From: Mobula birostris
Taxonomy: Eukaryota
Direction of reading: 5' to 3'
DNA: 64,000 nucleotides
Assembly: GCF_030028105.1 (NCBI RefSeq)
Contig: NC_092377.1
Location: 145,306,104-145,370,103 of the forward strand
Shown: positions 731 to 50,418 of the stretch, piece by piece
How positions within the stretch are numbered: the first letter of the stretch is position 1
Layout: each line of letters starts with the position of its first letter
Position numbers and translations under genes: made by a program
Notes under the pieces: model-generated
The model's input: only the letters and a program-made list of their open reading frames with translations
Databases searched by the model: none
What the model was told of the DNA's origin: nothing

Positions 731-840
731 ATTTAAGTAAGGTTAGTCCTGACGAAGGGTTTCGGCCTGGAACGTCGACTGTACCTCTTCCTAGAGATGC
801 TGCCTGGCCTGCTGCGTTCACCAGCAACTTTGATGTGTGT
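731..840 (+). mobile_element. Short Penelope terminal-repeat (pLTR) insertion carrying a hammerhead motif, nested in the gypsy integrase
   Basis: Interrupts the SDQ-x-S-N-F motif. TAAGTAA flanks it at 724-730 and 840-846. Same repeat as at 7950, 33960 and 50384. Confidence 0.8.
745..780 (+). ncRNA. Minimal type I hammerhead ribozyme motif, copy 1 (GAAA box reads GGAA)
   Basis: AGTC-CTGACGA-AGGGTTTCGGCCT-GGAA-CGTC-GACT; helix I AGTC/GACT, short helix II, palindromic ACGT in place of helix III. Confidence 0.75.
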
Positions 841-2672
841 AAGTAATTTTATGCCAGGATTGTTTCAGCAGGTGGTTTATAAACTGGGATCTAAGCAAAT
901 TATGCCTTCTGCATATCATCCAGAAACAAATGGGGCTTTAGAAAAATTCCATTCTACCCTGAAACAATGATTAAGTCATTCTGTAGTGAAAAGCAGAAGG
1001 ATTAGGATGAGAAAGTGCATTTGTTTTTATTTGCTGCAAGGAAGTCAATACAGGAATCACTCGGCTTTAGTCCATTTTAACTTGTATTTGGTCATAAGGT
1101 CGATGATATTTGACCCTGTTAAAGGAACAGTGAATTAATGAGGTCATGCAGATCAATATGTTAGACTATGTTTTGAAATTCAAAGACAGATTACACAAAG
1201 CTTGTGGCTTAGCAGTGGGAAACTTAATGGTTTCTTAAGACAAAAGGAAATGCTGGTATGATAAACCGGCTCGTGTGAAAAAAAATTCCAGTTGGGAGTA
1301 TAAGCCATTGTGTCATTGCCAGTCCAGACAAACACACTTCAGGCGATATATGATGGTTCTTGTGAGGTTTGGCTAAGATAAATGATGTGTCAAAACTCTA
1401 AACCGACGGAAGCCAACTCAGTTACGTCATATAAACATGCTCAAACCATATTTTGATAGACAATGTGCAGTTGTGACTAGGGTGGAAAATAACAATGAGT
1501 CTGGCAACCCTGGGAACGAATAAGTTGACCCATCTGAGGTTTTCTATAAAGCAAACATTGTTTCAGCTAGATGAGCGAACTCGAGTATTTTGAATTTGAT
1601 TAATGAAAAATTGGCCCACTTACAGCCGCAGCAGCGACGGGAGATGAAACAGTTAGTTATGAAATTTAAAGATTTCCCGATGTCCTGAAACTAACGATTA
1701 TAGCCCCCCATGATGTCCACGTCGGGCATTCTAAACCGATTAAACAACATGGTTATCGCATAAATATTGAAAAATGTAAACTTGCTGAACATGAAATTGT
1801 GTATATGCTGAAAAATGGTATTAATCAGCCTTTTAACTCAGATTGGTGTTCACTTCGTGTTATTGTGCCTGAACCAGATGGTCGTGTTAGATTTTCAGCG
1901 ATCATAAAAAGGTGTATGCTGTAATAAAAAAAAAAAAACAGATGTTTATCCGAACGCCAGAGTGAATGATAGCATAGGCAAAGTTGGAAAAGCTAATTTT
2001 CTTGCAAAGATTGATCTATTAAAAGGGTACTGCTGTGTTCCATTGACGGATAAAGGTAGAGAAATTTCTGCATTTGTAACGCCTTTTGAGTTGTATGAAT
2101 ACAACGTTTTGCAGTTTGGAATGAAAAATGCCCCAGGATCATTCCAGAGAATGATTAATTCTGTATTTGAAGGGTTAAAACACACAGATGGCTATATTGA
2201 TGATTTAGTCACAGGGAGTGACATGTGGGAAATACATATCTCTGCGGTGGAGGAGGTGTTTGAAAAGCTCTCGAAGGCCAACCTTACAATTAACTTAGCT
2301 GAGAGTGAACTTGGTCATGCCACTGTGACCTACCTTGGTTATGTTGTAGGTCAGGGCTTGGTTAAGGAAAATGGTTAAGAAGACAAATTAATCTCCAATT
2401 GATCAACAAAGTTTGATTTTGCAGCAATATGATATTATGATAACTCACAGTAAAGGCAAATAATATAATATCATTGCGGATTACATTTCTAGCTGTTAAG
2501 CTTACAATGTATTTTAAGACTGAAGTGGACTTTATTTTGATGTATACGCTTCTGCAGTGTGTTATATTTGGCCGTAGTATGCTATACAACAACCGTACAT
2601 GTATTTCACATTTTGAAGTTTGTAGTTAAAATTTTGCTCTTTTAGATCACATGTTTCCTTTTTGGAGGGAAG

Positions 2673-2785
2673 TGTTAAAGCTTGAGGTCGTACTGTGAGC
2701 GTTACTTTTATATCGTCTGATTGAGGCGGAACTATGGCGTCATCACAGGCTGTGGCAGGCTGCTGTCGACTTGAACAGACAGAGG

Positions 2786-2831
<46 letters not shown>

Positions 2832-3508
2832 GAGAGAGACATTACTCTCGTAGTCTACGCAAGACTTGGATGGAACTACGAACTGCCGGGGCAAGGTTGC
2901 TCCAGAAAGGGTGAAGTCTAAAGCTTTCCCATTACCCAAAAGTTTGGGTTAATCGACGGTACTAGCAACAATGAATGTGTGACTGTCAATTCGTGTAATC
3001 CATAGGAGTAGATTTTGGTGATATCCTGTGGGACCACTTGAGTTAACCCTTGCCTGGATATGTTGTGTGGTAACCACGCAAATATGATATTCCTGGGACA
3101 GGTTTCTTTTAGTGATAATTCGTATATGGACGGATTCTACGGACAAGATCTTCGGCGACTATTACTTTGTTTAACTTACGTGGAACCTGTGGAATGCCTC
3201 GTACTTACCTTTTCTCTGCATTACTGCGTGGATTACAAAAATAAATAAATAAATAAATAAAATCTCTCTCCATCATTTGTTCCGTGACTTACTGAAACTT
3301 TCTAATTTACCATCGTAAGACTTTAATAACTATTCCTAAGCTTGATAGTTACACATATATACACATAACACTGTCAACTTTTGTTTATCTCGTTAGGTTA
3401 CTATATAATGAGTAGATACTAATAAAGTTATGGTTTTAACATTGAAACCTGACTCAGTGTATAATCTATTGCTGCTGGTTCGTTACTAAAATGTTACAAT
3501 TCGTGAGA
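2673..3508 (+). mobile_element. 3' LTR of the Gmr1-like element
   Basis: Polypurine tract GGAGGGAAG (2664-2672) directly followed by TGTTA; AATAAA at 3421; right end approximate. Confidence 0.7.
2788..2838. repeat. (GA)n microsatellite inside the LTR
   Basis: Direct dinucleotide run. Confidence 0.95.
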
Positions 3509-4365
3509 TGACATTTCTTATGTTCCGTTGCGGAAAATTCTGCTGTTAAATCCACAGAGTGTCTCGACCTAATTACATTCCTATATAATGCAGTGGAGAG
3601 ATGGCTGGGAATGTTGTGACACTCGCATTGAGGATGATTAGTTTTATTCGAACTATTATTTTGTGCCTTTCATTCTTTTTAAGTTTCTGATTTCATTTGA
3701 ATTATATTTCTGAAAATATTTCCATGTGCTTCCAGTCAATTTAGAAGTGCTTCCTGAAAAAGTTCCTTCCAACTAAAGATAAAATCGCAGCATATTTTTG
3801 TGTATTGTTCGTATGTGTTTTATTTGCACCCCTTTCTCTACTTTGTTACATTTGTAATGTGTTCCACCATGTCGTCCGTCAATAAGACGATAAGAATTGC
3901 TGCCTAACTTCCCATTGCCTCCCTCTTCAGTCACCAGCATTTGTTTGTTTCTTTTTGTGCAGCTACATCGCTAGTCATTAAGGACTCAGTGTTTAAATGC
4001 CGAAATACTTTGTAAATATGCTAAATGTCATTGCTCTGCGCCTTTGTAATTTATCAGTCTATTGATGAGGTTTTGAGAGAGCCTCTTCTTTCGGCCCTTC
4101 TGATTTGCAAATATAAGTGTTCTTAACATCCTCCTTAAGAACCCCACATTCAACACAGACATTATTGTTGACCAATGACCAATTCTACGAATATCTCACC
4201 ACCATCTTATTAAACTGCCAGTCAATTTCACATCAAAATAATATCGAACGATTCTGTCCTGAGACAACTTATTTTTTTTATGAAGCAGAATTATGGATAA
4301 CTGACCTCTGCTTTCCAAGTGCAAGAAAGGCTTGCTATTGATTTGTTCTGAAATCCGTTACTCAC

Positions 4366-4677
4366 CAGAACAGGTCAGACTGACATCGTTCTTGTGGTTG
4401 CACTGATGAGCCCTTGTGAAATATGGACAGTCGTATAGGCTCGACTCATTACCTTGACATTTAAAGATATTGTTCCATATACGTCCTTTTCCCTCCCCAA
4501 AATAAGCTCCTCCTAGCACAGAAACAGCGACTCCACATTGAAGTTGATTGCACACTACGTTGGCATCATTCATATTCCAGTGCAGGTCACACACCGTTCC
4601 CCATTTTTCACCAAACTGCACTTCCAGTCTTCCCGAGCATTCGTCATTTGCAGACACCAATCTTGCAGTTCTGTGAC
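4366..4677 (-). CDS. SRCR group B domain exon (8 Cys) of a CD163/DMBT1-like scavenger receptor
   Basis: Acceptor ttttctcttcgcatatttctcag, donor G|gtgagt, 312 nt, phase 1-1, open frame: HRTARLVSANDECSGRLEV...WGTVCD...VVCNQLQCG...FGEGKGRIW...CQGNES...C...CNHKNDVSLTCS. Confidence 0.95.
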
Positions 4678-5299
4678 CTGAGAAATATGCGAAGAGAAAA
4701 TATGAGAATGAAAATTATTACAATGTACAGTCAAATCATATTGCGTTCAGCATTTATCATATTCCGAAAGCATGGGGTTCCAATCTGATCTGCGAGAGAT
4801 GACCTGGTTATCCAACAACAGATTGCACCGTACTTATTCATTTCTGATGAATTTATTTTAATGTACATTTTTGCACAACCATGTTTTAAAGCTAATATGC
4901 GTAAGAACAAAGCAGCTAGTAAAATCTGGATCGAGAATATTCTAAAATCAATAACAGACAATCTTTATCGCAGGTGTGTTCGCCTTTTTATCGACATCAT
5001 CCAATTTGACATCAGGATATCAGAACTCAGCAAAAAAGTCCCCGTGCTCTATAATTAAGGCCAAATAAATGATCGTTCACTTAACGAGCTACTTTTCGTT
5101 CTGCACTAGCCACTGTTGTCTCCAGCTGTATTGCCTACAGGAATTGAAAGGCGTTTTGCCGAATTAACCTTCATTGACACTCATGGTCACACCGCCTCAG
5201 TAGAAATATCGCCAAACTTCTCTGACTAAGTCTTTGAAACAGAGAGTATAGAAACACCCTATCAGGACTGACTTCTCGTTGCCCATCAAGAAGTCTACC

Positions 5300-7640: not shown

Positions 7641-7949
7641 TTCATCTGGATGAATACAAATACTGTACTGTTGTTCTGAATACCAACCCTTGGGCCCACT
7701 TCGTCAGAAGCCAAGAAGTAGGCCAGACAATGGTTGCACAGCGACATGAACAATTTTAACAATATTATTAAAAAGGTATTTTCATACTTAAGAAACGCTG
7801 AAACGAATCAATTACATTTTATTGATAACAATGCACACGTTATAATTCCTGATGTCAGGGAAATATCATAACATATGTTTGTTCCGTTGTATGTCAATCA
7901 TGAGAATACATTTCCCCAGCTATGTCCTGCCCTATTGAACTAAACAGCT

Positions 7950-8048
7950 AGTCCTGACGAAGGGTCCCTGCCCGAAGCGTCGACTGTACGTCTTCCTAGA
8001 GATGCTGCCTGGCCTGCTGCGTTCTGCAACAACTTTTATGTGCGTTGC
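7950..8048 (+). ncRNA. Penelope pLTR copy 2 with hammerhead motif at 7950-7985 (GAAA box reads GAAG)
   Basis: AGTC-CTGACGA-AGGGTCCCTGCCC-GAAG-CGTC-GACT followed by the shared tail cttcctagagatgctgcctggcctgctgcgttc. Confidence 0.75.
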
Positions 8049-8136
8049 AGGTAGTTCAGGTATGCCAGCTGTGAAGCTATGAAACTGGATTGCTGCCATG
8101 GGAAATGCTGGAAAGAAACGAGGTGTGTGGGGAGGG

Positions 8137-8202
8137 GAAGAGAGAAAGAGAAAGAGAGAGAGAGAGAGAGAGAGACTGAGAGTGAGTGAGAGAGAGAGAG
8201 AG
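8137..8202. repeat. Imperfect (GA)n microsatellite
   Basis: Direct inspection. Confidence 0.9.
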
Positions 8203-8879: not shown

Positions 8880-9010
8880 GAGACCAATTCTTGCGTCCAC
8901 AGTAAGTATTTTCGATGTCTCCCTGTGAATGCACGGGTTTCCCCCCACATCCCAAAGACCTACCGGTTCGTTGGATAATCGGGCATTGTAAATTGTCCCG
9001 GGATTAGCGA
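8880..9010 (+). mobile_element. HE1/V-SINE-like SINE fragment
   Basis: cccacatcccaaagacctaccggtt...gggcattgtaaattgtcccgggattag core; similar to 51300-51600. Confidence 0.6.
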
Positions 9011-9129: not shown

Positions 9130-10441
9130 ACAAATTGCCTAATCTGTCTGACAAGATGGAGCCAGGATCGTTTCCCGAAACGAAAATCCTGCCCGAATAA
9201 CCTAGTGCAATTTTTGAGGACATTACAAGCAGGGTAAACAGAAGAGATGTAATATATGTTGTGTACTTGGATTTTCTGAAGGCCTTTGAAAAAGTGCCGC
9301 ACATGTGGCAGCTTAGGTCTCCATGGAATTACAAGGAACTTATTAGGGTGGGTGCAGCAATGGCTAATCGGGAGAAAACGGAGAGTGGGAATAAAGGGAT
9401 CCTATTCTGGCTGTCTGCCAGTTACCAGCGGAGTTTCACATGGGTCAGTGTTGGGACAGTTGCTTTTTACTTTGCACAGTATGTCAATGATTTGGACTAT
9501 GGGCCTAATGGATTTGTGGCTAAATTTGCCAATGATACAAAGATCGGTGGAGAAGTGAGTAGTGTTGAGGAAACAGAGAGCCTGCAGAAAGACTTCGATA
9601 GTTTAGGGGAATGGACAAAGTAGCAGATGAAATACAGTGTTGGAATGTGAATGATCATGCACTTCGATGGAAGAAATAAACGGGCATACAATTATTTAGA
9701 AGGGGAGAGAATTCAAAATGCAGGGATGCAACGGAATTGGGAGTATTTGGGTAGGATACCCTAAAGGTTAACCTCCAGGTTGAGTCGGTGGTAAAGAAGG
9801 TAAATAAAATGTTAGCATTCATTTCTAGAGATATAGAATAAAAGAACAGGGATGTGGTATTTAGGCTCTATAAAGCACCCGTGGGACCACACTTGGAGTA
9901 GTGTGTGCAGTTTGGGCTCCTTATTTTAGAAAGGATATGTTGATATTGGAGGTGGTTCAGAGAAGATTCACGAGAATGATTCCAAGAATGAAAAGGTTAC
10001 CGTATGAAGGACGTCTGCCAGCTGCTGGACTGTATCCCTGGAGTTCAGGAAAATGAGGGGGATCTCATAGAAACATTCCGAAAGTTAAAAGGCCTGGTCA
10101 GATTAGATATGCCGAAGTTATTTCCCATGGTAGGAGAGTCTATGGCAATACTTCAGGATGGCAGGACGTCCATTTAGAACAGAGATGCAGTGAAATTACT
10201 TTAGTCAGATGGTGGTAAATCTGTGGAATTTTTTGCCATAAGTGGCTGTGGAAGCTGAACCATTGGCTGCATATAAGGAAGAGATAGACACGTTCTTGAT
10301 TAGCCGGGCATCAATGGTTATGGGGACAAAGCAGGCGAGTGGGAATGACTGCAAGAATTAGATCAGCCATGATTGAATGGCGGAGCAGACTGGATGGGAC
10401 TAATAACCTACTTCTGTTCCTATATCTTATGGTCTTATGGA
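9130..10441 (+). mobile_element. 5'-truncated CR1 LINE (RT half plus 3' tail)
   Basis: YLDFLKAFEKVPH, GVSHGSVLG, VAKFANDTK motifs; ends in cctatatcttatggtcttatgg. Confidence 0.92.
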
Positions 10442-11868
10442 CTTCATATCCGCCATCTTAAGCATTCGCTCTACCTGGTTGTGAACTAATTGTCACTATT
10501 ACCATAGGATTTGAGAGCAAAAGTCAACATCGGCCAATTTCATGGTACTTACTATGCAGGGTTTTGGAAACAACTCCATTGAACTTACAGAAAATTGGTT
10601 GCTATAAGGGAGCCCGGTCAGGGAGTCACATGTCACCATTACATGCAAATATACCATTTTTTTCTTTTTTACCATCACTCTGAAGGCGTCCTGAAAATAT
10701 TTCACTAAACCATACAGTATCTAGCAACCACTGTTCAAGCAGGTAACCAGCTACTACACTGCGCGTGCGCTTGTGGTGCGAACTTGACAGAGATAATCTA
10801 GCAATGAGATGAAAGTTGCACTGAATGCATTCACGTAGGGGTCTCTCACTCGGTGACACTCAACTAGTGTCATGTCAACATGAGAATTCAAACTGCAGTT
10901 GCTATAATTTAGATGTTAAACCAAAATCTTAGACATGCTCCATATCTCAGGTGACATTTGTAGGCGTACGTATAGAATTACTGTATTTGTTCACCCGAGT
11001 CCCCCGTGTTGCAGCTGGAAATATTGAAGGAAAAATAGATTGCAGAGAAGATGGTGCAAAAGAAGCGTAAATCCTGTTTTTCAGTCCACATTTTCTTTCC
11101 GAGTTGCGGATTTATTGCAACATTTTCTGCTATTATTTCGTTTCTTGGGAGCTGATAGTTTCTCATCGTCAGCTCTATTCGCAGTTGCTGCTTAACTGAC
11201 TGTTCTTCGGTGACCGGGGAGACAAGGGATTTGTGTTCCTCTAGAGGATTGTAATAAAAGAATGGTACAAATATGGTGAATACACGCGTTATTTATATTA
11301 GAAATGATATATCAAACCCTGAACGCATATATTTCGCGGAGATAGGAAATACATCAAAAGGACTCGAAGGACAAGTTCTTCATCCAAACGGTGGTAAGTA
11401 GATGGACGACCCGCAAGAGGAAGTGATTGAGACGGGTAAAGTGACAATGTTTGAAAGCCACTTCGACAGATTAAGGACAGGATTTTTTTTTGATGGGCAT
11501 AAGGACTCACGTGATCAACTAACGCAGCTTATCATGTTGGCCGTCATGGGCTATCTGTTTTCTTTTTTTTTGGGTGGCGAGAAGGGATGAAAGTGGGAGA
11601 ACTGTCCCCGTATTGTTTCACTCTACTAACCAGCAGTTGCATGTGCTGGATCCCGGAACAATTGAAAATAAATTTTGGAGGAACTCGGAGGCAAGACTAT
11701 CATATGTCAGGGAAGAGGAATTTTCGATATTTAATAAAAAGATATCAAAACTGAAACCACAGGCTTCACGTGAGGGACTAAATAATTCAGAAGGACGTAA
11801 GAGGGAACTTTTCACCGACGTACTTGGACAGAAAATATTTGGAGGGAGATAGGGCAGGACAGTTTCTC

Positions 11869-13334
11869 TGTCATGGTCCGGTCCCTGAAGTCCATATTCC
11901 GGTTCAAGGTCCGGTCCATCGACCCATGATCCAGGTTTTCCTGTCTACCTTGTTTCTGGCTTGTTGAGCTCTAATTGAGTCAGCTGATGCTCGTAGGGGC
12001 TGGCTGCATAAATACCTTAGAGACCAGAGTGTGGCTGCTATATTGTTCTTGTCCTTACTCCTTGTATCCCTTCCTCTGCCTTCTGTTTCCTTGCCTGAAG
12101 CCCTGCCTTGTCTTCCCGAAAACTCTCGCCTTGCCCTGCATTGCCTGAAGCCTTGCCTTGTCTTGCTGGTAACTCTCGCCTCGCCTGAAGTTCTCGTCTC
12201 GCCTTGCATTGCCTGAAGCCTTGCTTTCTCTTGCCGGTAACTCTCGCCTCACCTGAAGTTCTCGTCTTGCCTTGCATTGCCTGAAGCCTTGCCTTGTCTT
12301 GCTGGTAACTCTCGCCTCGTCTCGTCTGCAGTCTTGTCCTGGAGCTACCCTGTACCTAGCTCCGTTCCTGTCCTTTGTCTCCGCCCAGGTAAGCCAGGCC
12401 GTCTTGCCGTTACGTGCGGTTGGTTCTGTCCCTTTCTGTTCCATGCCTCCGTCGGGTGGTGATCCGCGCCCTGCCCAGGTGAATCGCGCACTGCCCAGCA
12501 GAACCGCGCTCTGCCCAGGTGAACCGCGCTCTGCCCAGGAGTACTGCGCCCCGCCCAGGGGATTCGCCCCCTGCCCAGGTCATCCGCGCCCTGCCCGGGA
12601 GTACCCCACCCTGCCCAGGAGTACCGCGCCCTCCAAGGGGGAGCCTGCCTAGCCTCAAACCTGAAGACTCCAGCCTCCTGCTTAGTCTCAAGCCTGAAGA
12701 CTTCAGCCTCCTGCCTGGCCTGAAACCCGAATATTCCAGCCTCCTGCCCGGCCTCAAGCCTGGAGATTCCAGCCTCCTGCATAGCCTCAAGCCTGAAGAC
12801 TCCAGCCCCCTACCTAGTCTGAAGCCCGAGTACTCCAGCCTCCTGCCTCCTGCCGAGCTTCGCCTCATGTCTCCAGCCTCCTGCCTCCTGCCAAGCCTCG
12901 CCTCAAGTCTCTGGCCTCCCATCTCCTGCCAAGCCTCGCCTCGTCTTTGGCCTCCTGCCTACTGCCAAGCCTCGCCTCAATTCCCTGGCTTCCTGCCTCC
13001 TGCCAAGCCTCGCCTCAATTCTATGCCCTCCGGCGTCCTGCCAAGCCTCGCCTCAAGTCTGTAAGACTCCAGCCCCGCCCTGCCTGCCAGCCAAGCCTCG
13101 TCCTTACCTAGTTCTGGGGTCCGACCCAGAGGCAGGACGCAAGTGCTGGGTTCTTGTCCAGTCTCTGGCTTGGAGTCCATGCCCGGGCTCCTAGCTCTTT
13201 TGTCCAGTCCTGTTCCAGGTTCCTGGTTTTCCTGTCCATGTCCTTTTCATCGCCCTGTATCCTAGTCCTGTCCCTAGTACTTCAGTAGCTGTGTCTTACA
13301 CTTGGGTCCGTTCCGAGCCACCCTCCTTATGACA
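11869..13334 (+). mobile_element. Solo-LTR-like element, copy 1, with four internal minisatellites
   Basis: TGTCAT...ATGACA termini; TATA-like ataaata near 12008; arrays of 68 bp (12141-12325), 20 bp (12459-12635), 33 bp (12645-12845) and ~38 bp (12845-13065); ends shared with the 37159, 46484 and 48351 copies; TSD not exact (TTCTC/GTCTG). Confidence 0.8.
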
Positions 13335-13434
13335 GTCTGTGCCATGTTGCGCTGTTATTTTAGAGTTGCAAAACCCTTGCCGCTGGAACATGTACAAACA
13401 GACTATAGAGGAAATGATCTGTGGGGGGAAGAGA

Positions 13435-13525
13435 AATTCCCGACGTTTTAGGTCCAGATCTGTGCAGTCCTGACGATATCATTTTACCTGCCACCACAGA
13501 TGCTGCTCGACACTGCTCCAGTAGA
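13435..13525. mobile_element. Degraded, possibly back-to-back Penelope pLTR remnant
   Basis: cgacgttttagg (reverse 3' half) followed by cagtcCTGACGA and cacagatgctgctcga; no GAAA box retained. Confidence 0.4.
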
Positions 13526-13752
13526 TAAGCTGACTATCGAGTATATATGCACTTGCTGTTGATAATTAATTAATAACACAATAGAAGTACGATAACACGA
13601 AATTCTAATCCAACATACGGTGAAACCCGACATAAACTGTATTTAGTTCGACATAAGATGTGGAGAGCGGTCCCTACCGGGTATTAGACATCGGAGACAT
13701 CCCAGACAACAATCAAATTACGAGACCGCAGATACAAAAGTCTGACTTTTAC

Positions 13753-14064
13753 CTTCGCAAATAACGCCGACATCGCTTTTGTGTGAATTGTAGTCCAACC
13801 ATTCATCAGTTGTGCACTCCTGCTGAGAGGCCTCGATCCCGCCGCATGGATGATACTTCATCAAAACGGGTCCGGACCCTTTTCCAAAGTGAGCATTCTC
13901 CAGGGTTTTCTGCGCGGCGCCACAGTGCAGCTCCCCGCACACCATAGCCGCGAACTTCAAATCCCAAATATCACCAGCCACAGTCCACCAATCTCCCTGA
14001 TAGTGAATTTCTACTCTTCCAGCGCATGGACTGCTACCATTCACCAATCTGAACATTAGTCTTT
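13753..14064 (-). CDS. SRCR group B domain exon (6 Cys; C2 and C7 absent) of the same receptor gene
   Basis: Acceptor ttttctgtttatttttcag, donor G|gtaaaa, 312 nt, phase 1-1, open frame: RLMFRLVNGSSPCAGRVEIHYQGDWWTVAGDIWD...VCGELHCG...HFGKGSGP...HKSDVGVICE. Confidence 0.93.
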
Positions 14065-29990: not shown

Positions 29991-29999
29991 TGGCTGACA

Positions 30000-33800: not shown

Positions 33801-34630
33801 ATTAGATTAGATTATGCGAACACTCAGTCCTTATTTCTTGTCATTTAGAAATGTATGCATGCATTAAGAAATGATACTCTGTTCCTCGAGAGTGATATCA
33901 CAGAAAAAAAAAACAGGAAAAACCAAAGACTAATACAGATAGAACCACAAATTATAACAACGCACATGAAAGCTGCTGGTGAACGCAGCAGGCCAGGCAG
34001 CATCTCTAGGAAGAGGTACAGTCGATGTTTCAGGCCGAGACCCTTCGGCAGGACTAACTGAACGAAGGGTTAGTGAGAGATTTAGATAATTATAACATAT
34101 AGTTACAGCAGTGCAAATCAATACCATAATTTGATAAAGAACAGACCATGGGCAATATAAAAAAAAAGTCTCAAAGTCCCGAGTCGATCCACTCCTTAGT
34201 CCCCTATAGCAGGCGGCAAAGGAAGAAACTCTCTGCCAAAAGCTCTAGGCATCGACAACTGCCGATGCATTGGAAGCATCCGACCACAGCCGACAGTGAG
34301 TCCGTCCTTCCGAAAACTTCGAGCCTCCGACCAGCCCCTCTGATACAGCCTCCCGAGCGCCATCCGCAGCCGAGTGCCATCGACCTCGCCCAGCCGCCGA
34401 CACAAGTAAAGCCGAGGATTCGGAACCTTCTCCTCCGGAGATTTCGGACCACACATTAAAAGCGGCAGCGAAGCGGGCGTTTCATAAGTTTCTCCAGCTG
34501 TTCCTCCGTACTCTTACGTCTGTCTCCATCAAATCAGAATTGTGCACCGTCCCCTACTTGACAAATAACAGACATCACCACTGAAGTGGCCGCGCACGCT
34601 ACGTCGCGCCGCCATCTTCTCCTCCTCCCT
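33801..34630 (-). mobile_element. Non-autonomous retroposon with AAGATGGCGG start and (AATCT)n tail
   Basis: Minus strand starts ggagaagatggcggcgcgacg and ends cataatctaatctaat; splits an R4-like C-terminus; no credible ORF. Confidence 0.7.
33960..34087 (-). ncRNA. Penelope pLTR copy 3 with hammerhead motif (34020-34055); stand-alone insertion
   Basis: Minus strand AGTC-CTGCCGA-AGGGTCTCGGCCT-GAAA-CATC-GACT; perfect 10-bp duplication AATTATAACA at 33950-33959 and 34088-34097. Confidence 0.8.
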
Positions 34631-36459: not shown

Positions 36460-38555
36460 TTATGTATTTATTATCATCTAAATCTGGGGAAAAGCTGAGG
36501 TATGGGCATAGACAAGCACGCTAATTTGTCAAATGATCAGAGCTTTTAGACTGTTCTAGTGGTGATTAGTTATGTATCTTTCTGACGGTCTACTGTGTAA
36601 TGGTAATCTGTACTGCGTTTAGCATCATATCAGTTGTATTTATTACTATTGGGACAATGTCTACCCGGTGTGTTTTCAAACGTGCTTCAATTTCCTTTCA
36701 TAATTGAACATATTAATGGTGTTTTTTTTCACTTTTGGATTTTTGTATACGTGTATTTCAAATGGCTATATCTATTAACTTCAGAATATTATATTGTCAA
36801 GAGGGGACCCTTCTGTTTCTTAGAAGACGTCTCCTACACCGAGGCAGGCATCAAACACTTCCTTGTAGACATCTAGACTGCTCAAATCGTTGGGATGTCT
36901 ACCGTGTACGGTCATGCTCGTCCATTCATTATCTTTTTGTTCAGTGGTGATAACATTTTCTTTTTTTTTTTTCCCATTGTGCTTTCATTTAAGTTGAGTG
37001 GTGTATAGCTCTTATCAGAATTGGATTTGCTTGCACGGACTGCTGATTCATGCTTTCGTCGATGAAAGTATATAGCTCTATCTGTGTAGATTTGTAATGT
37101 CTGTTATTACTCTTTCCCTACTGGCCCAGGTCGTTTAAATCTAAGCACATTCGAAAGCTGTCACAATGGCGGGGCATTGGGGACAAGGGTGGACCCAAAT
37201 GCAAGGCACATCTTGTGAGGTTACTTAGATTTAGTTTATTGTTCGATACCATGAGAGCAAAGCTGGAGCAGGAAATAGCGAAATGGACAAAACTCAGGAC
37301 TAGGAATACACTGGGACCAAGTGTCTGGGCTTCGAATCGGAATCGGCTCCCAGAACTAGAGGAGACGTGAAGAGGCGAGGGTATGGACTCCGAGCCAGAG
37401 ACTCGGCAAGGACCCAGTTCCTGGGTCTTGTCTCGGGCTCGGACCCCAGAACCAGGCAAGGGCATGACATGGGTTAGGGAGAGCAGGGATATGGGAATAC
37501 AGAGCCTCAGTCTCGGGGAGAGGTACACAGAACTATGGACACATACACAGAAGACAGAGTCGGGACCCCTCCTTGGGTACAGGACATAGGGCCAGGACTC
37601 ATGACCCTCCGCGGGGCAACGGCAAGACTTACCCCACAGAGGCGAGGGGAAGACAAGACAGACGATGACCCCCCGCGGGGCAACGGCAAGACGGCCTGAC
37701 CTACCCCACGGAGGCGAGGACAAGACAAGACCAACACGATTGAATACCAGACAGCACCTATCTAGCTCTGGTGATGGAACTAGACCAAAGAGCAGGCGGG
37801 GTCTGCAGACGAGGGCTAGAGGCGAGAGGGGCAGAGAAGGGATTCAGACGAAGGGGTAGGACAGGAATCACAGTCCGCCAGGGCCAGGACCTGACTCAGG
37901 ACTGGGAAGCCGCCAAGACTAGGACTTGACTTGGCGCTTGAATGACGCCAGGGATAGGACTTCACTTGGTGCTTAAATGCCACCATGGCCAGGACTTGAC
38001 TTGGTGCTTGAAGGCCGCCAGGGAGAGGACTTGTCTTAGTGCTTGAAGGCCGCCGGAGCCAGGACTTGACTTGGAGCCTCCGGGTAGTGGCGAGCTCTTG
38101 ACTCGGCCCGGGAACAGTAGATAGCGGTTCTTGATTCCCTCCGGCAGGTTAACTGACGGACCCAACTCAGTGAGGAAAATTTGCAGGCTCGCTTTGGCAA
38201 GGTAACTGGACAGGATTGCTACGGTAAGGAGAGGTGAATTACCGGCACTCACTTTGGCAGAAGCTAGGCTTGCTCCGGACAGATAACATCGACACACGAT
38301 ACCTTGGATGACCTTACAGACTCTCCCGCACCCAACGGCTGAAAGCCGGAGACTATATACTACCGGTTCAGCCGAGTGTAAATTGTCTCTAATCAACAAA
38401 GTCGAGGGACACGGGAAAATAGGGAATCAGCGGTCGGATCGTAACATAAACAAGCTAAATTTAAAGGGACCCCGATCCGGACCATGACAAAAGCACGTAT
38501 TTTCTGAAATTATGTAATTTCCTTTTTTTATTTTTCTTTGTAAATGATTATTCTT
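36460..38555 (-). mobile_element. R4/Dong-like element, internally deleted, split by a solo LTR
   Basis: DACLGVGDVF*ETEG motif at ~36800-36860; C-terminus and 3' UTR as in the 38845 copy; resumes at 38490. Confidence 0.75.
37159..38489 (-). mobile_element. Solo-LTR-like element, copy 2
   Basis: Minus strand TGTCATGGTCCGG...GTGACA; perfect 5-bp TSD AAAGC (37154-37158, 38490-38494); ~35-bp array at 37875-38075; AATAAA near the 3' end. Confidence 0.9.
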
Positions 38556-38844: not shown

Positions 38845-41800
38845 TTTTATTTATCTATTATCATCTAAACCTGGGAAAATCTGAGGTACAGGCATAGCCG
38901 GATACGCAAATTTGTCAATTTTCTCGGAACTTTTGGACTGTTCTGTTGGTGTTTAGTATTGTAACTTTCTGAAAATTTACATAGATATTGATGTGTATCT
39001 CTAATTGTTTAACACGATTCTGTAATGCCGTTGGGCATGATACAAGTTGTAGATATTACTATCAGGAACTCTAACACCGGTTCTTGCTCCGAAGTCTTTC
39101 AATTTCCTCTTTAAATTTAGCATTTTTCTGGTGTTTATCACTTCGTGATCTCTGGCAAGAGGGTTTGGATATATCTATTAAATAATATATTATTGCTTGT
39201 TTATCCTGTATTGTTAGATCACACGGTTATTATAGATTGTCCTATTTATTACAACTGATGTGTCCTAATATATTTTGTTGTATTTTCACTCCAAAACTGG
39301 GCCAGACTTAAATTTATAGTGAGGTGTGATTCCATCAACGAGAGTGTATTATAAAGCAAAATTTCGATGAATGTATTCTGTCCATTTGATAGTACCTCTG
39401 TAAGTAATCGGATTTTGTGAAACTGCTGCGGGATTCTGTAATGTCTTGCATCGTTTCTGCTTTTCCTCATCGTTTTCTACGTTACCGACTTGTATTTGTT
39501 GGTCTTTTTTTCATGTGTTTTGATATTTTTGTGTTATCTATTAGGTCATCTATTGACACAAAGAGCCCTTCTGTTTCTAGGGAGAGGTCTCCAACACTGA
39601 GACAGGCGTTCAACGCTTATTGTCGACATGCAGCCTGCTTAGACCATAAGATCATGTGGATGTTCTAAATACACGCTCATGTACTTCGCAAGATCACAAG
39701 ACAAAGGAGCAGAAGTAGGCCATTCGGCACATCGGGTCTGCTCCGTAGCTCCCCCATGAGCTAAACTATTCACCCATCTAGTTCCAATTTCCGTTTTTTC
39801 CCCCATATCCCTTGATATCCTGACTAATTAGATGCCTGTTAATCTCCTCCTTAAGCACCCTCAATTATGGGGCCTCCACAGCTGTCTGTGACAACGAATT
39901 CCACAAATCCACAACCCTCTGGCTAACAAAAAAATCTCCTCATCTCTGTTTTAACTGGGTGTCCTCTAATTCTAAGACTATGGCCTCTTGTCCTGGACTC
40001 ACCCACCAAGGGAAACAACCTTTCAACATCGACTCTGTCCAACCCTTACGGCATTCGAAATGTTTCTATGAGATCGCTTATCATTCTTCAATACCCTGAT
40101 GAATACATTTCAAGAGCCGACAAACGCTCCTCATATGTTAGCCCCTGCATTCCAGGAATCATCCTCGTAAGTTTTCTCTGAACTCTCTCCAACATCAGTA
40201 CATCCTTTCTAAGATAGGGGACCCAAAACTGCACACAGTATTTCAAATAATGTCTCACTAATGCCCCATAGAGCCTCATTAACACCTCCTTACTCTTATA
40301 CACTATTCCTCTTGAAATGAATGCCAATATAGTTTCGCTTTCCTTACCACCGATCCAACTTGGTGGTTAACGTTTAGGGTATCCTGCACGAGGACCTCCA
40401 AGTCCCTTTGAACTTCTGATTTTTGAATTTTCTCCCCATCTAAATAATAATCTGCCCGATTATTTCTTCTTCCGAAATGTACAACCGTACACTTGTCAAA
40501 GTTGTATCTCATCTGCCATTTCTTTGCCCACTCTCCTAAACTGACTGAGTCTCTCTGCAACCTTTCCGTTTCCTCGATATTTTCTGCTCCTCCACCTACC
40601 TTGGTGTCATCCGCAAACTTAGCCACAAAACCATTTAATCCATAATCCAAATCATCGATATACATCGTAAAAAGAAGCGGTCCCAACACCGACCCCTGTG
40701 GAACACCACTAGTAACCGGAAACCAGTCAGAATAGCATCACCTTATTCCCACCCTTTGCTTTCTGCCTATCAGCCAATGCTCGACCCATTTCAATATCCT
40801 TCCTATAATTCCATGGGCTCTCATCTTATTAAGCAGCCTCATACGCGGCACCTTATCGAAGGCCGTTTGAAAATCCAAATACACAACATCCACAGCCTCT
40901 CCCTTGTCAATTTTATTCGAGATTACGTCAAACAATTCCAATCGGTTGATGAGACAGGATCTTCCCTTCATGAAACCATGCTGGCTTTGTCCTGTCTTGT
41001 CATGCACCTCGAGGTGTTGCATAACCTCGTCCTTGAGGATTGACTCCAATCTCTTACCAATTACTGATGTCAGACTAATAGGTCTGTAATTTTATTTTTG
41101 CTGCCTCCTTCCTTTCTTAAATAACGGAGCTACATTTGCGACCTTCCAGTCCTCAGGAACCATGCCAGAGTCTATTCATTCCTGGAAGATCATTTCCAAT
41201 GCTTCCACAATCTCCAAAGCGACCTTCTTTGGAACCCTTGTGTGCAGCTCATCCGGACCAGGAGACTTATCTATTCTTAGTCCATTTAGCTTCCCAAGCA
41301 CTTTCTCTCTAGTAATCTTGACTGTACCTAATTCTATTCCCTGATACCTCTGGCTATCGGGTATATTGCTCATGTCTTCCACTTTGAAGACTGATGCAAA
41401 ATACTCATTCGGTTCCTCTGCCATCTCTTTGTTATCCATTATAATTTCTCCAACATCATTTTCAATCGCTCCCGTATCTAACCTTGTCGCTCTTTTACTT
41501 TTCATATATTAAAACAAAACTCCTAGTATTTTTTATGGTAATCGCCAACTTCCGTTCATAATTCATCTTTTCTTTCCTAATGACTTTCTTAGTTTCCTTC
41601 TGTAAGTTTTTAAATGTCTTCCAGTCCATATTTTTCCCACTAATTCTTGCTTTCTTATACGCCGTTTCCTTTGCTTTTATTTTTGCCCTAAACTCTCTCG
41701 TTAGCCGCATTTGCGCCATTTTCCCATTCATGGTTTTCTTTTTACTTGGAATATATTTTTCCTGCATTTTCCTTATTTCTTGTAGGTACTTCCATGGGAT

Positions 41801-42350
41801 TTCTTTTTCTTCCATATTGACAATGTCTTCATAGATCTGAGTTGTGCTGTCATTTACGTTTAGTGGTGTATACCTTTGATTAGAATTGGATATGATTGTG
41901 AGAAATGTTGATTCCCGTTTTCGTTGACAGAAGTATATTCTTAGTTTCATCTGATGGTTGCCTATAATTTAAATGTTTGCTCTTAGTTCCACCCCCCCCC
42001 ATCCAATGTAGTGTCAAATTAAGCACATTAGAATGTACATGATGTTTCGAAAATTTATCATTGTATTTCCATTTTTTTAATAAAATTTCCAGATAGTTTT
42101 GGAACCAAGATATTATGTCAGAAAATACATAAATATAGGTGTAGCGGCATTGTTTATTGCATTTGTTATTTTTTTTTACTGTTAAACTCAGATTGGCAGA
42201 TTTTCTTAAGCCTTGAAATAAATTCTGTCAAAACTTTCTCATTTATCACACTATCTATTTTCTTTTGATTGTTGATACTCCAGATATTTATATATTTCAT
42301 ATTCATCAATCATTGTATAGTATCCTGTTTCTCTTTTTGTACACTATTAT
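38845..42350 (-). mobile_element. Longest R4/Dong-like copy (post-RT region, zinc-knuckle remnant, restriction-like endonuclease), split by a CR1
   Basis: KLRIYFCQRKR...YTPLNVN (41950-41800); NACLSVGDLSLETEGLFVSI...ETMQDIT...SDYLQRYYQ; NRTIYNNR/DLTIQDKQAIIYYLIDISKP...KFKEEIERL...IVISTT...FQKVTILNTNRTVQKF; frameshifted. Confidence 0.8.
39688..41785 (-). mobile_element. 5'-truncated CR1 LINE
   Basis: KSPGPDELH, YLDFQTAFDKVP, KFADDTK; tail caagatcacaagac; GTACTTC duplicated at 39681-39687 and 41786-41792. Confidence 0.93.
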
Positions 42351-42609
42351 GTAGTAGTACTACTAGTAGTAGTGGTTATACTTTATTGATCCCCATGGAA
42401 ATTGATTAAATTAACACTAATTAAGTGCTCTTTATGTTTAATCTTCTGCTTTTAAACAGACCAACGTTCATGTTTACGAGAATATGCCACCATAAGGTGT
42501 AAGAGCAAAATTCTTCCTTTTGTCTCATCTATTCTGCTTCGCCATTTCATCATAGGTGATCCAGTTTTCTTCTCAGCCTCAATGGACTGCTTTCTTCCCG
42601 TTTTCTTTC

Positions 42610-43145
42610 GTACACTGACAAATCTAATGTTTATCAACTCTGTTTTAAGTATACATGAAGATTTGGACTCCAGTTTGCCTGGCTCAAACAATTGCATAGA
42701 ATCACCACTCTCTGGCTGAAGATATTGTTTTTTATCTCCCATTTAATACGACGCCTTTCGGTTCTCAGGATGCGTCTTCTGGCCTTAGACACTCCCACCA
42801 TAGGAAACGTCCTATCCACAGCAACTCTGTCTAGGACTTTAACCATTCGATAATTTTGAAAGTGGACACCCATCATTCTTATGAATTATGTTGAATACTG
42901 GTCCATAACAATCAGACGCTCAATCCTGCAATTATTTTCCTGAACCTCCTTTCAACACTTTCGAGTTCCAGCACATCCTTTCTATGCTAAGAAGCACAAA
43001 ACTACTTACAATGCTGCAAGTGAGGCTCACTAGCACTTTATAAAATTTCAGCATTAATTCGTTGCTTTTATATTCTGGTAGTCTTGAAATCAATGCTAAC
43101 ATTGAATTTTCCTTCCTCACCATAAACTGAACCTGCAAGGTAACC
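42610..43145 (-). mobile_element. CR1 3' fragment
   Basis: MLALISRLPEYKSNELMLKFYKVLV; FSQRVV. Confidence 0.8.
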
Positions 43146-45379: not shown

Positions 45380-45615
45380 TTCTAGTTTTCTGAGGACAAA
45401 CATCTCATCGCCAGAATGTCATTGGAGAGAGTCTTCAGAGCGCTGCCCGAAGCCCAAAAGTTTTCATTACTCTCTCAATTTCAAGCCATTGGACTTCCAC
45501 GCAAGTCGTACAGAATTGCATTGAGACCAAACTCAAAAGGATGAACAACACCTCACACTGTCCTCAGTCTGTAAATGGATGGCGTGCAATTTGAATTTAC
45601 TGCTTCAGGTAACAC
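45380..45615 (+). mobile_element. Ancient Penelope GIY-YIG C-terminal remnant
   Basis: gagaccaaactcaaaaggatgaacaacacctca...gatggcgtgcaatttgaatttactgcttcaggtaa aligns by eye to 48125-48221. Confidence 0.45.
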
Positions 45616-46483
45616 TTTCTCACTTTCTTTCCTTCTGATCCACTCAGTTCATCCTGCACACCGCAAATCCATTTTCAAACAGATTCTTTCCCTTTACCAC
45701 ACACTCCTCCCACAGGGTCACACATCTCAACTCCCTTACGCAGCTCTGCTGAAGCATCAGATTATGCACTACATTCACTGCAAGTACATTGAAATTCAGA
45801 TGTTGCATTTAGCGTCGTGAAATATGCCAAATCAAAACAGTAACATCAAAGTACATTTTCAATAAGGTATTATGAGCAGACAACGAGTGGATAGTTTTAT
45901 AGTTAGTATCCTGGAAATATTTGATTTCCATTGTTAATAGTGAAAGGCTACAAAAGTTTCACTAAATATTTTAACTCATTCTTAACTCTACGCATGTTTC
46001 TGTAAGACCATATTGCGTCATCATCTCGCGAACTCGATCTTGAATCCGAATGCCCTGAACGATTAAGTGTTGTATTGCAAACAATACAAATAGCTGCATA
46101 TGCATTATACGATTGCCCTCCCTAAAAATACTAAATTGCCCGCCAACCCTGTCTCCTGCAAACTTGTACCAAACCTGTCTCTTGCAAACCTCTTCCCACC
46201 CTGTCTTTTACAAAAATGCCATCCCCTTCTCGCAATTCCTCCGTCTCTGCCGCATCTGCTCTCAGGATGAGGCTTTTCATTCCTGGACGAAGGAGATGTC
46301 TTCTTTTTGTTTTTTTTAAGAAAGGGGCTACCGTTCTTCCACCATCAACTCTGCTCTCAAACGGATCTCTCTGCATTTCGCTCACATCTGCTATCACCTC
46401 ATTCTCTCGCCACCCCACTAGGAATAGGGTTCCCATTGTTCTCACCTTCCAGCCCACCAGCCTCCCGGTCCAACATGTAGCTA

Positions 46484-47651
46484 TTTCATGGTCTGGTACA
46501 TGAAGTCCGCATTGCCGTTCACAGCCCGGTATGTGGACTCGGGACTCCGGGTCTTCCGGCTGTCCCTTGTTTCAGTTGGCCTAATCATAGGCACCTGATG
46601 CTCGTCTTGGGGCTGGAAATATAAGTGGCCCTGGGTTCGAGTGTGGGTGCTGGTTCGTCTCGCCAGTGTCCCGTCGTCGCCTCCGTGGGATAAGTCAGGC
46701 TGTCTATGTCGTTACCCTGCGGTTGGATCTGTCCCTTCCTGTCCTTGCCTCCGTTAGTTAGCCAGACCGTCTGTGCCGTTACGCTGAGGTTGGACTGTTC
46801 CCTTTTCTTTCCCTTCCTTCTGCAGCTTTGCCTGAAGCATTCCATGTTTTGCCGTGAAGTTCTACCGCTGGAGCGAGACCAGAGCCTTGCTGTGTCAAGA
46901 TAAGAAACTGTCTATCGTAGTTTGGAACTGTCTCCATGTGCCCTCGCCTTCGTAGGCAAGTCCGGCCGTTTGTCGCTACTGTGTGTTGGGAACCGTCTCG
47001 TCATGTTCAGCATTCTGTGTATGAATCCCGGCCCTATGTCCTGTTCCCAAGGAGGGGTCCCGGCTCTGCGTTCTGTGTATGAGCCCTGTCCCTACGTCCT
47101 GCTCCCAAGGAGAGGTCCCGGCCCTGTATTCCATGTTCCTGTCTCTCAAGTCCAACGCTCCGTGTCTCCATGCTCTAGACCAAGACTCCGAGTGTCTAGT
47201 CCTCGTCCAAGGCTCCGAGCGTCCACTCCTCGTCCAAGGCTCCGAGGTTCCTGTCACCCAAGACCACGCCATGTCTTCGCCTAGTTCTGGAGTCGGAATC
47301 CGATGCAAGACCCAGCTTCTGAGTCCTTGCCATGTCTCTGGCTCGGAGTCAATACTCAATCCTTGTCATGTCCTCGCCTAGATCCGGGGTCCGAGCCCGA
47401 GACAAGTCCCAAGTACTGTGTCCTTGTCCAGTCTCTGTCTCGAAGTCCAAGCTCAGGCTCCTAGATTCAATATCCTTGTCTCGCTATCCCAGCCAAAGTC
47501 CTAGCACAAGTCTCTGTTTCTGTCCCAGCTCCTGGTCTGTGTCCAGTCACGTCCCTATCACGTCTTTGATAGTCACGTCTTTGCCCTGTTCCTAGTACTT
47601 CAGTGTCTACGTTTTGCATTTGGGTTCGCTACCAGCCCCCCACCTATGACA
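46484..47651 (+). mobile_element. Solo-LTR-like element, copy 3
   Basis: T(T)TCATGGTC...CTATGACA; splits the Penelope ORF between caacat and aattctccgtaac; no clean TSD. Confidence 0.85.
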
Positions 47652-48350
47652 AATTCTCCGTAACTTCCAACACCTCCAAAGGGATTGCACCACCAAGCAC
47701 ATCTTTCCCTCCCCACCCCCCTTTCTGCTATCCGCGGGGATCGCTCCCTACGCGACTCCCTTGTCCATTCGTCCCCACACCATTCCTTCCCACCGATGGC
47801 TCTCCCGGTAATTATCCTTGTAAGCGGAACAAGTGCAACACATGCCCTTACACTTCCTCTCACCACCATTCAGGGCCCCAGACAGTCCTTCCAGATGAGG
47901 CGACACTTCACCTGTGAGTCAGCTGGGGTGATATACTACGTCCGGTGCTCCCGGTGCTGTCTTCTATATATTGGCAAGACCCGACGCAGGCTGGCAGATC
48001 ATTTCGGTGAACACCTTGGCTGTGTCCGCCAGAGAAAGCAGAATCTCCCAGTGGCCACACATTTTAATTCCACGTCCCATTCCCATTCTGATATGTGTAT
48101 TCACGGCCTCCTCTACTGCCTAGATGAAGCCACACTCAGGTTGGAGGAACAACACCTTATATTTCGTCTGGGTAGCTTGAAACCTGATAGCATGAACACT
48201 GACTTCTCTAACATCCGTTAATGCCCCACCTCCCATTCTTACCCCACCCCTTATTTATTTATGTTCCCCCCTTTTCTCTCTCTTTTTTTCTTCCTCTGTC
48301 CCTCTCACTATAACGCCTTGGCTGCTCTCCATCTTCCTCTGGGCTCCCTT

Positions 48351-50190
48351 TGTCATAACAGAGGGCGCTGGTGGCGGACCCAAGTGCAAGACACAGTCAC
48401 TGAAGTAGTAGGAACCGGTCTTGACTAGGGAGCTGGGATAAGAATACAGACTTGGGCTAGGACATTGGTGAGGCAAGCGGGACCAAGACAAGGAACTGTG
48501 AACTAGGAACCTGGGCTTAGATTCCGAGCGGGTGACTGGACAAAGACACAGAAACTGGGTCTTGACTAGGGCTCGGACCCGGGAACTAGGCAAGGACATG
48601 ACGTGGCTACAGGACTGGACATGGCTTGTGTTATTCGAAAGCGAGGACATGCCGAGACTTGGGTTCGAACTCCGATCCAGAGACTGGACAACGGCCCAGA
48701 ATCTGGGTCTTGACAAGAGCTCGTACTCCAGAACTAGGCGAAGACATGACATGGTCTTGGGAGACAGGGCTAGGCAATTCTACAGGACAGAACGAGAGAC
48801 TCCTGGGCAAGCCGAGGGGTCCAGTACAGGACGAGGGAAGTCCAGCACAGGACGAAGAACATGGACAGGACGATGCACTTGGACAGGACGACAAAAAGAA
48901 GCCTTGACTTGGTACTCAGGAGCAGCCGAGCCTTGGACTTGGGTTGACAAAACCACGGAACCTTGGACTTGGGACGACAGCAACGCAAAACACAGAGCCT
49001 TGTTCTTGGGAAGGACAGGAACACAGAGTCTTGGTCTAGAGCACGTGGACGCTGAGCCTTGGACTTGAGAGACAGGAACACAGGGTCACAGAACACAGAA
49101 CCAGGACTCCTCTTTGGGAATACGACTTCGGGCCGGCGTTCCACACGAAATGCTGAACACGACCAGACGGTTTCTAACACTAGGTAGCAACAAACGGACG
49201 AACCTGCCTAGTGAAGGCCTGGACATAGAGACATTTCCGACTCAACGATACACAGTTCCTTATCTTGACACAGTAAGGCTCCGGTCTCGCTCGGGTGGTT
49301 GAACTTCACAAGGTTGCGGGCAACGCTCCAGACACAGGTTGCAGGCAAGGCTCCAGACACAGGTTGCAGGCAAGGCTCCAGACACAGGTTGCAGACAAGT
49401 CTCCAGACACAGGTTGCAGGCAAGGCTCCAGACACAGGTTGCAAGCTAGGCTTCAGACACAGGTTGCAGGCAAGGCTTCAGACACAGGTTTCAGGCAATG
49501 CTCCAGACACAGGTTACCGGTAAGACTCCAGACATAGGATGCAGACAAGGCTCCAGACACAGGTTGCAGGCAAGGCTTCAGACACAGGTTTCAGGCAATG
49601 CTCCAGACACAGGTTACCGGTAAGACTCCAGACATAGGATGCAGACAAGGCTCCAGACACTGGTTGCAGACGAGGCTACATACACAGGTTGTAGGCAAGG
49701 CTCCATACACAGGTTGCAGACAAGGCTTTAGATACAGGTTACAGGCAAGGCTCCAGATACAAGTTGCAGGCAAGGCTTCAGACACAGGTTGCAGGCAAGG
49801 CTTCAGACACAGGTTGCACGCAAGGCTCCAGATACAGGTTGCATGCAAGGCTCCAGAAGGAAGGGGAAAGGAAGGGAACAGTGGAGCCTTAGGGTAACAG
49901 CAAGGACGGCCTGGCTTACCCAACGGAGGCAAGGCCAGGAAGGGGCAGATCCAACGCAGGGTAACGGCAAGACGGCTGACTTACTCCACTGAAGGGAGGA
50001 CGGGATACTGACGAGACGAACCAGCACCCACACTTGAACCCAGGGCCACTTATTTTCCCAGACCCAAGACGATCATTAGGTGCCTAGGGTTAAGCCCAAC
50101 TGAAACATGGACAGATGGAAGACCCGGAGTCCCGAGTCCACGGACCGGACCGTGAGCCGGAACGCGGATTTCATGGACCGGATCATGACA
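48351..50190 (-). mobile_element. Solo-LTR-like element, copy 4
   Basis: TGTCAT...ATGACA termini; near-TSD CCCTT/CCCCT. Confidence 0.88.
49310..49856. repeat. 25-bp minisatellite (GCTCCAGACACAGGTTGCAGGCAAG), ~22 units, with a 100-bp higher-order duplication
   Basis: Units start at 49325, 49350, 49375 and so on; variant block ~49455-49554 recurs at ~49555-49654. Confidence 0.95.
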
Positions 50191-50383
50191 CCCCTCCCCC
50201 TTTCTTTCTACCTAGGCTTCCCGTCCGGTGATCCTCTCCCTTCTGCAGCCTTTTATCCCTTTTGCCAATCAACTTTCCAGCTCTTAGCTCCATCTCCCCC
50301 CCCCCGCCCCGTCTTCTCCTACCATTTCGGATCTCCCTTCCCCTTCCCACGTTCAAATATCTTACTATCTCTTCTTTCAGTTT

Positions 50384-50418
50384 GTCCTGACAAAGGGTCT
50401 CGGCACGAAACGTCGACT
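50384..50418 (+). ncRNA. Hammerhead motif copy 4 at the 3' end of the Penelope element (CTGACGA reads CTGACAA)
   Basis: GTC-CTGACAA-AGGGTCTCGGCAC-GAAA-CGTC-GAC. Confidence 0.75.

Follow-up and report, generated by a model that had tools for sequence, protein, structure and literature searches.

Minimal hammerhead ribozymes (min-HHRs) were described in metazoan Penelope-like elements (PLEs) in 2014 by Cervera and de la Pena (PMC4209133); the hallmarks given in the available text of that paper are an unpaired base between positions 9 and 10.1, a G10.1-C11.1 pair and a palindromic 15.2-16.2. Its counts of min-HHRs include ~4,000 for coelacanth and 9,000 for Xenopus tropicalis; for axolotl, a published count of type I hammerhead ribozymes (HHRs) is 126,247. 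In other PLEs, according to the literature, ribozyme cleavage is weak and depends on dimer formation or on help from the element's protein, and insertion does not require the ribozyme. Here we analyse 64 kb of the genome of the ray Mobula birostris (NC_092377.1, positions 145,306,104 to 145,370,103, forward strand; hereafter the window), which holds a dispersed repeat with a hammerhead motif. The copies are very probably the dead 3' ends of a Neptune-type PLE family of a myliobatiform ray, whose active element would have carried an intact min-HHR.

The closest published ribozyme in the available text is the Neptune min-HHR of Acropora digitifera (PMC4209133). The window copies resemble the metazoan PLE min-HHRs set out there in the core boxes, the unpaired base between 9 and 10.1, the G10.1-C11.1 pair, the lack of a helix III loop and the palindrome, and also in the short helix I, the U-rich 5' flank and the occurrence mostly as dispersed single copies from 5'-truncated PLEs; unlike them, all the window copies bear core lesions, their helix II (4 bp) lies at the short end of the range, and no shark, skate or chimaera is named in the accessible part of the paper's supplement. 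The carrier shares with endonuclease-positive (EN+) Neptune PLEs (Craig et al. 2021, PMC8557442, in its available part) a C-terminal GIY-YIG domain that has two Cys between its GIY and YIG elements and also His residues, a CX2-5CXXC linker, a hammerhead near the 3' end and an optional 30-40-nt tail, and differs in that the two resolved target sites are merely AT-rich, with no microsatellite. The Poseidon element of Anolis carolinensis (Frangieh et al. 2024, PMC11167929, in its available part) is similar in that its hammerhead is uncut in the insertions, reverse transcription (RT) starts downstream of it, the targets are AT-rich and there are two alternative 3' ends; it belongs to the Poseidon clade, unlike the carrier as assigned here, and its open reading frame (ORF) starts within the hammerhead. 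Non-LTR (long terminal repeat) retrozymes (PMC7229834; bioRxiv 10.64898/2026.07.22.740005) also combine type I HHRs with short dispersed repeats related to the pseudo-LTR (pLTR) of PLEs, but retrozymes as described are tandem repeats with mostly canonical HHRs, and no tandem unit is present in the window.

The repeat family and its hammerhead motif

The family comprises four copies of ~100-130 nt each, spaced 7-42 kb apart (Table 1). The nhmmer profile (E 1e-30 to 1e-36 for the four copies) derives from these same sequences, so the fair test of membership is pairwise BLASTN, which gave E-values of 1e-18 to 1e-38 and identities of 78-93%. The three short copies are mutually 88-93% identical, versus 78-83% to the ORF-linked copy at 50384, and all four extend 63-68 nt past the cleavage site. 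These BLASTN values, together with descriptor matches in excess of shuffled sequence (below), uphold the four hammerhead-bearing copies proposed by an earlier sequence-only reading of the window; the sites are those it gave, but the repeat is longer than its 36-nt unit. That reading had counted six copies, two of them eroded, and the count is now four, or five with a relative at ~54800 (minus strand). This relative is matched by the four-copy profile at 54734-54812 (E 1.2e-8), but its tail differs and no hammerhead core was recognisable there in the descriptor scan even with two mismatches; on sequence grounds it is a core-less sister subfamily. Its ~35-nt extension, which matches an exonised copy in the predicted protein P0012 (E 1.5e-4, in a small local database), is a candidate for the PLE 'tail'. 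The second proposed eroded copy, at ~13465, is unproven: neither family profile matches there, and its best local score is equalled by 8/738 background windows on the plus strand and 45/738 on the minus strand. The faint repeat-like remnants at 13428-13520, on both strands and head to head round an 11-nt match (none significant singly), could be an old inverted pLTR.

For the motif, the RNAMotif descriptor of PMC4209133 (Fig. S7: helix I of 3-7 bp, first box, helix II of 3-7 bp, second box) was implemented and both strands of the window were scanned. The strict descriptor gave no match (0/4 copies pass). With one core mismatch allowed there were three matches (C3 at 749, 7954 and 34051), all of them named copies; 30 dinucleotide shuffles averaged 0.1 matches and never gave more than one (one match in 3/30). 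The copy with C3 at 50387 was added, and nothing else, once one helix II mispair was also allowed, a setting without shuffle control. The bare two-box pattern gave no match in the window, at a chance expectation of 0.48 per window.

In the first copy, helix I is formed by 744-748 and 777-781 (5 bp), followed by the first box (749-755), an unpaired A (756), helix II (757-760 with 765-768; 4 bp, 4-nt loop) and the second box from 769, with the cleavage site after 776. The boxes and the palindrome of the architecture first proposed hold, but its helix II was one base out of register and took in the unpaired A. This extra A between 9 and 10.1 is present in 4/4 copies and the palindromic 15.2-16.2 in three of the four; the 10.1-11.1 pair is G-C in two copies and G-U in two (11.1 being C or T, respectively), T at 11.1 being best read as CpG decay. 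In the three short copies an ATG 21 nt 3' of the cleavage site, a possible ORF start, begins a reading frame of at least 17 codons; the fourth copy lacks this ATG.

The core lesions are private to each copy (A13G, A15.1G, A6C and G8A, none common to two copies), as the sequence-only reading had stated, and the majority of the four copies is intact at 12/12 core positions. Of 8000 scored candidates, four predicted proteins were matched by a profile built from the four translated copies; all four come from rays (Mobula hypostoma, two from M. birostris, Hemitrygon akajei). Three of them, P0009-P0011, cover the motif, and each has P-D-E-G and P-E-T there, codons that fix C3, G5, A6, G8, A9, G12, A13, A15.1 and 15.2; the fourth protein begins after the core. 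At the four lesion sites, 3/3 motif-spanning external ray copies encode the intact bases. Because the lesions are private and the ray proteins encode intact bases at these sites, the ribozyme of the source element is, as far as these sequences tell, intact, in agreement with the earlier claim. Lesion rates are similar in the core (4/48), the rest of the motif (8/104) and the first 39 nt downstream (9/156; Fisher p 0.75), so no selection is visible, at the sequence level, on the core of the genomic copies. The short copies considered alone have 2/117 changes downstream of the motif (first 39 nt only), an apparent excess of conservation on which we do not rely.

A tail frameshift is common to the ORF-linked copy and P0011, whereas the three short copies resemble P0009, P0010 and P0012, which argues that the copies come from at least two subfamilies and not from a single source element. 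Ray gene models including the tail or ORF of this PLE were annotated as STARD3NL, SIRT3, CoA synthase, DIPK1C, mucin-2 and chitinase-domain isoforms (P0009-P0012, P0004, P0005, P0008); the PLE sequence within them is probably an annotation artefact or the result of exonisation.

The carrier element and the insertion of its copies

The sequence-only reading took the 50384 copy for the 3' end of a GIY-YIG Penelope element; the continuity of the two was confirmed, with a 1.84-kb insertion lying between them. Residues 88-184 of the homologue P0001 were placed by tblastn at 46188-46485 (70-79%) and the remainder from 47652, residues 184 and 185 flanking nested insertion 1 on either side. Thumb, linker and endonuclease (EN) follow one another in PLE order: a CX4CXXC linker motif lies at ~47813-47855 (frameshifted; the same motif is present in the homologues), and the translation of 47862-48218 shows a GIY-YIG domain in which a CxxC lies between GIY and YIG and two His follow downstream (CCHH). 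The Pfam GIY-YIG E-values were 0.028 for the window copy and 5e-4 to 2e-3 for P0001-P0004, and RVT_1 matched P0008 (E 1e-4). The longer-protein search gave eight matches among 75 candidates, all from Mobula or Hypanus (54-82%; 67-82% for the six that cover at least 96% of the query), and the Atlas neighbours of P0004 carry PF26215/PF00078/PF01541 (score 0.96-0.97). For P0001 and P0006, the read-through tails align to 48222-48320 and pick up again at 50187-50225 (the second match short and weak, E 0.06-0.9), on the two sides of insertion 2; with insertion 2 skipped, C3 of the ribozyme lies 326 nt 3' of the ORF stop. The assignment of the repeat family as the 3' terminal repeat of a GIY-YIG PLE is supported by these alignments, and the CX4CXXC linker points to a Neptune-type carrier, the clade being assigned by this motif only.

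No target duplication of insertion 1 was resolved in the flank comparison; insertion 2 has a 5-bp duplication with one mismatch (48346-48350, 50191-50195). The two TG...CA-ended elements sit inside one and the same PLE copy, oriented oppositely to each other, and belong to a solo-LTR-like family of 1.2-1.8 kb, full of 20-38-bp tandem arrays, with further members at ~11868-13334 (minus strand) and ~37100-38400. Around the PLE's truncated 5' end (~46140-46200) there are two or three short partial repeats of one ~18-nt thumb sequence, suggestive of template jumps.

Table 1 Coordinates of the repeat copies and of the carrier element in the window (min-HHR, minimal hammerhead ribozyme; UTR, untranslated region).
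Feature	Coordinates	Strand	Motif	Lesions	Remarks
Short 5'-truncated PLE 3' end with min-HHR	742..839	+	744-781; C3 749; cleavage site after 776	A13G at 770	Inside decayed Gypsy-type integrase
Short PLE 3' end with min-HHR	7945..8047	+	7949-7986; C3 7954; cleavage site after 7981	A15.1G at 7977	Lacks a clean target duplication
Short PLE 3' end with min-HHR	33960..34087	-	34056-34019; C3 34051; H17 34024	A6C at 34048; 16.2 G>A at 34026	~27 nt extra 3' UTR
PLE fragment 1: RT end (thumb region) and linker start	46188..46483	+			Frameshifted, 5'-truncated; tblastn, translation
Nested insertion 1, TG...CA-ended, solo-LTR-like	46484..47651	-			Splits PLE ORF; left end approximate
PLE fragment 2: linker and GIY-YIG endonuclease	47652..48221	+			Stop at 48219-48221
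PLE 3' UTR, first part	48222..48350	+			Pyrimidine-rich
Nested insertion 2, TG...CA-ended, solo-LTR-like	48351..50190	+			1.84 kb; 25-bp tandem array
PLE 3' UTR/pLTR with min-HHR	50191..50482	+	50382-50419; C3 50387; cleavage site after 50414	G8A at 50392; 11.2 C>A; 2.4 A>T	Belongs to second subfamily; downstream end of 68 nt; repeat match 50355-50482
Diverged relative of the repeat	54700..54812	-			Core lost, downstream end kept, ~35 nt extra extension; left end approximate

Two of the short copies have resolved insertion sites. A perfect 10-bp AT-rich duplication brackets the 34020 copy (34088-34097 and 33950-33959); among random pairs of windows, 0.9% share 10 nt. At the 745 copy the duplication is AT-rich and 7 bp long (734-740 and 840-846), and the integrase reading of its Gypsy-type host continues across the 742-839 insert. 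Flank comparison resolved no target duplication for the 7950 copy, the long element or the 54800 relative. The first 7 nt of the 7950 copy (7945-7951) match its downstream flank (8048-8054) at 6/7 positions, which may be a target duplication that overlaps a junction with microhomology.

All four copies run 63-68 nt past the cleavage site, and their templates were therefore, presumably, uncleaved RNA. We propose that the pLTR of the active element would have carried an intact minimal type I hammerhead with a 5-bp helix I, the first box followed by one unpaired A, a 4-bp helix II, the GAAA box and, where helix III would be, a palindrome of 4 nt. The GIY-YIG endonuclease would nick AT-rich DNA; reverse transcription would begin ~65 nt downstream of the ribozyme on the uncleaved transcript and would mostly stop early, leaving stubs of ~100-130 nt and now and then a longer piece, and the inserted copies would then decay neutrally. 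The copy features match those of the Anolis Poseidon element in the AT-rich cleavage, the start of reverse transcription downstream of the hammerhead and the hammerhead kept uncut. The four genomic copies themselves most likely do nothing.

Predicted folding and alternative explanations

Several results weigh against the derivation of the repeat from a Neptune-type PLE with an intact ribozyme. The Rfam check suggested by the sequence-only reading found no hammerhead at E<=10 in the window or in 7900-8060 (the E-value scans returned ten and two matches, respectively, all at chance level), and compensatory changes were found at 0 of 9 pairs across the four close copies, whose divergence is small. 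There is no intact copy in the window (0/4; probability 0.18 under the observed lesion rate), P0010 carries a lesion at U16.1, and U4, A14, 16.2 and 11.1 are third codon positions, unreadable from the external proteins. The Pfam scores of the PLE ORF and its homologues are under the curated cut-offs, a PDB search with six homologues gave nothing significant (one match, E 0.79, disregarded), and the RT core and the 5' pLTR are absent from the window, where only the 3' repeat is present. The 7-bp duplication at the 745 copy is weak on its own, as 7-mer sharing occurs in 6.5% of random pairs. The last two points come from ViennaRNA folding of the script-built majority motif, with energies that ignore tertiary contacts: the predicted best fold of the monomer is an inactive rod (-12.9 versus -8.9 kcal/mol for the hammerhead), and that of the dimer a non-catalytic duplex (-34.1 versus -16.7 kcal/mol for the double hammerhead).

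In the predicted rod, core positions 5-8 pair with the cleavage-site strand (15.2-17), with modelled pair probabilities of 0.94-1.0 for C or U at N7 and of no more than 0.19 for A at N7. Two majority-rule motifs can form a nested, fully canonical double-hammerhead dimer in the model, although this is not the predicted minimum. The computed energies argue against efficient unaided self-cleavage.

The alternative that survives best, though we hold it only tentatively, is that the hammerhead-like motif is a vestige, or a protein-binding or packaging hairpin, that never cleaves at a biologically relevant rate. The retention of the sequence past the cleavage site in 4/4 copies speaks for it, as does the predicted pairing of core 5-8 with the cleavage-site strand (probability 0.98-1.0), and in Anolis, by the available text of PMC11167929, insertion of Poseidon hammerhead mutants is normal and RNA-seq shows no reads that terminate at the site. 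However, the family consensus keeps every core position, which requires selection in the master lineage, and the Anolis hammerhead cleaves once protein is added, with C3/G8 rescue (same source).

It is unlikely that the three short copies represent a non-autonomous, SINE-like (short interspersed element) or retrozyme-like unit that consists of the ribozyme and ~65 nt more, descends from the pLTR and is moved in trans. Their greater similarity to each other than to the ORF-linked copy fits such a unit, two of the three begin 2-4 nt before helix I, and PLE-derived retrozymes including monomers are reported, in the accessible part of the preprint, from vertebrates and one chondrichthyan (Li et al., bioRxiv 10.64898/2026.07.22.740005). 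Yet the 5' ends differ, one short copy extending ~27 nt farther into UTR sequence that the ORF-linked copy matches; the unit forms no tandem array in the window; the ends do not lie at the cleavage site, unlike those expected of retrozyme monomers; and no tRNA head was found (ARAGORN, 0 tRNA genes).

Host exaptation of the copies as regulatory ribozymes in introns of an SRCR gene is highly improbable: two SRCR exons do lie on the minus strand (4361-4663 and 13748-14059) and related copies are exonised in predicted ray proteins, but every copy has a core lesion, the core decays at background rate, three of the four copies are antisense to the SRCR exons and one lies within a Gypsy integrase. 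A chance likeness of an ordinary repeat end to a hammerhead, which the lack of strict descriptor matches, of Rfam matches and of covariation and the two-box expectation of 0.48 would allow, is already largely refuted, since one-mismatch matches with both helices number 0.1 per shuffle and in the window fall only on these copies, and the motif lies where PLE ribozymes sit and has features beyond the descriptor (the unpaired base between 9 and 10.1, G10.1-C11.1, the palindromic 15.2-16.2).

Neighbouring sequence and significance of the family

The two SRCR-domain exons (Pfam E 2e-27 and 4e-22) are part of a scavenger-receptor gene of the host, and tblastn found no further SRCR exons in the window. 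The rest is rich in remnants of mobile elements. Decayed Gypsy-type pol fragments occupy ~394-2400 (plus strand), with an RT match at 1908-2375 (RVT_1 E 2e-20); upstream of it, 394-1100 is, by its motifs, presumably integrase-like, and with integrase before RT there may be two elements here or an arrangement like that of Gmr1. A Tf2-like SH3 domain at 53692-54033 (minus strand, E 1e-14), adjoining the 54800 copy, represents a second LTR-retrotransposon pol remnant. Decayed fragments of long interspersed elements, which we take to be of CR1/L2 type, are found at ~9200-10150, 16900-19250, 39800-43000, 55100-57130 (RVT_1 matches at 55282-57127) and 60100-60650. There is a weak GDSL/OSK esterase-like match at 21393-21719 (minus strand). 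The fragments at ~62400-63900 (plus strand) presumably resemble a hAT/SPIN-type transposase; 62585-62902 gave no Pfam match.

Four copies in 64 kb correspond to 62 per Mb (Poisson 95% 17-160), a density taken from one repeat-rich window. If the window is typical, a ray genome, which we assume to be a few Gb, would hold ~10^5 remnants, roughly one third of which, extrapolating from this single window, would have an intact core. It is conceivable, although we think it improbable, that rays hold one of the largest known min-HHR families and that the element's protein must open the self-inhibited rod, which would also stall RT just past helix I and so give a discrete ribozyme-plus-tail unit of ~100 nt. 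If true, the self-inhibited rod would explain in structural terms why PLE hammerheads depend on protein, and the ray family would be a very large natural mutational dataset.

The family is a real and expected feature, the phenomenon of PLE minimal hammerheads having been in print since 2014. A literature search found no paper on a PLE ribozyme from a ray or shark and none on this ray family, which may be listed in Repbase, Dfam or paper supplements, outside that search. These four dead copies leave the in vivo function of PLE hammerheads undecided. For annotators, the repeat that leaks into predicted ray proteins as a spurious insert of ~35 residues can be recognised as a PLE end with a ribozyme missed by Rfam. 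The finding extends PLE minimal hammerheads to a ray family, and a high-copy family with dated subfamilies and two 3' ends would help to study the in vivo role of these ribozymes.

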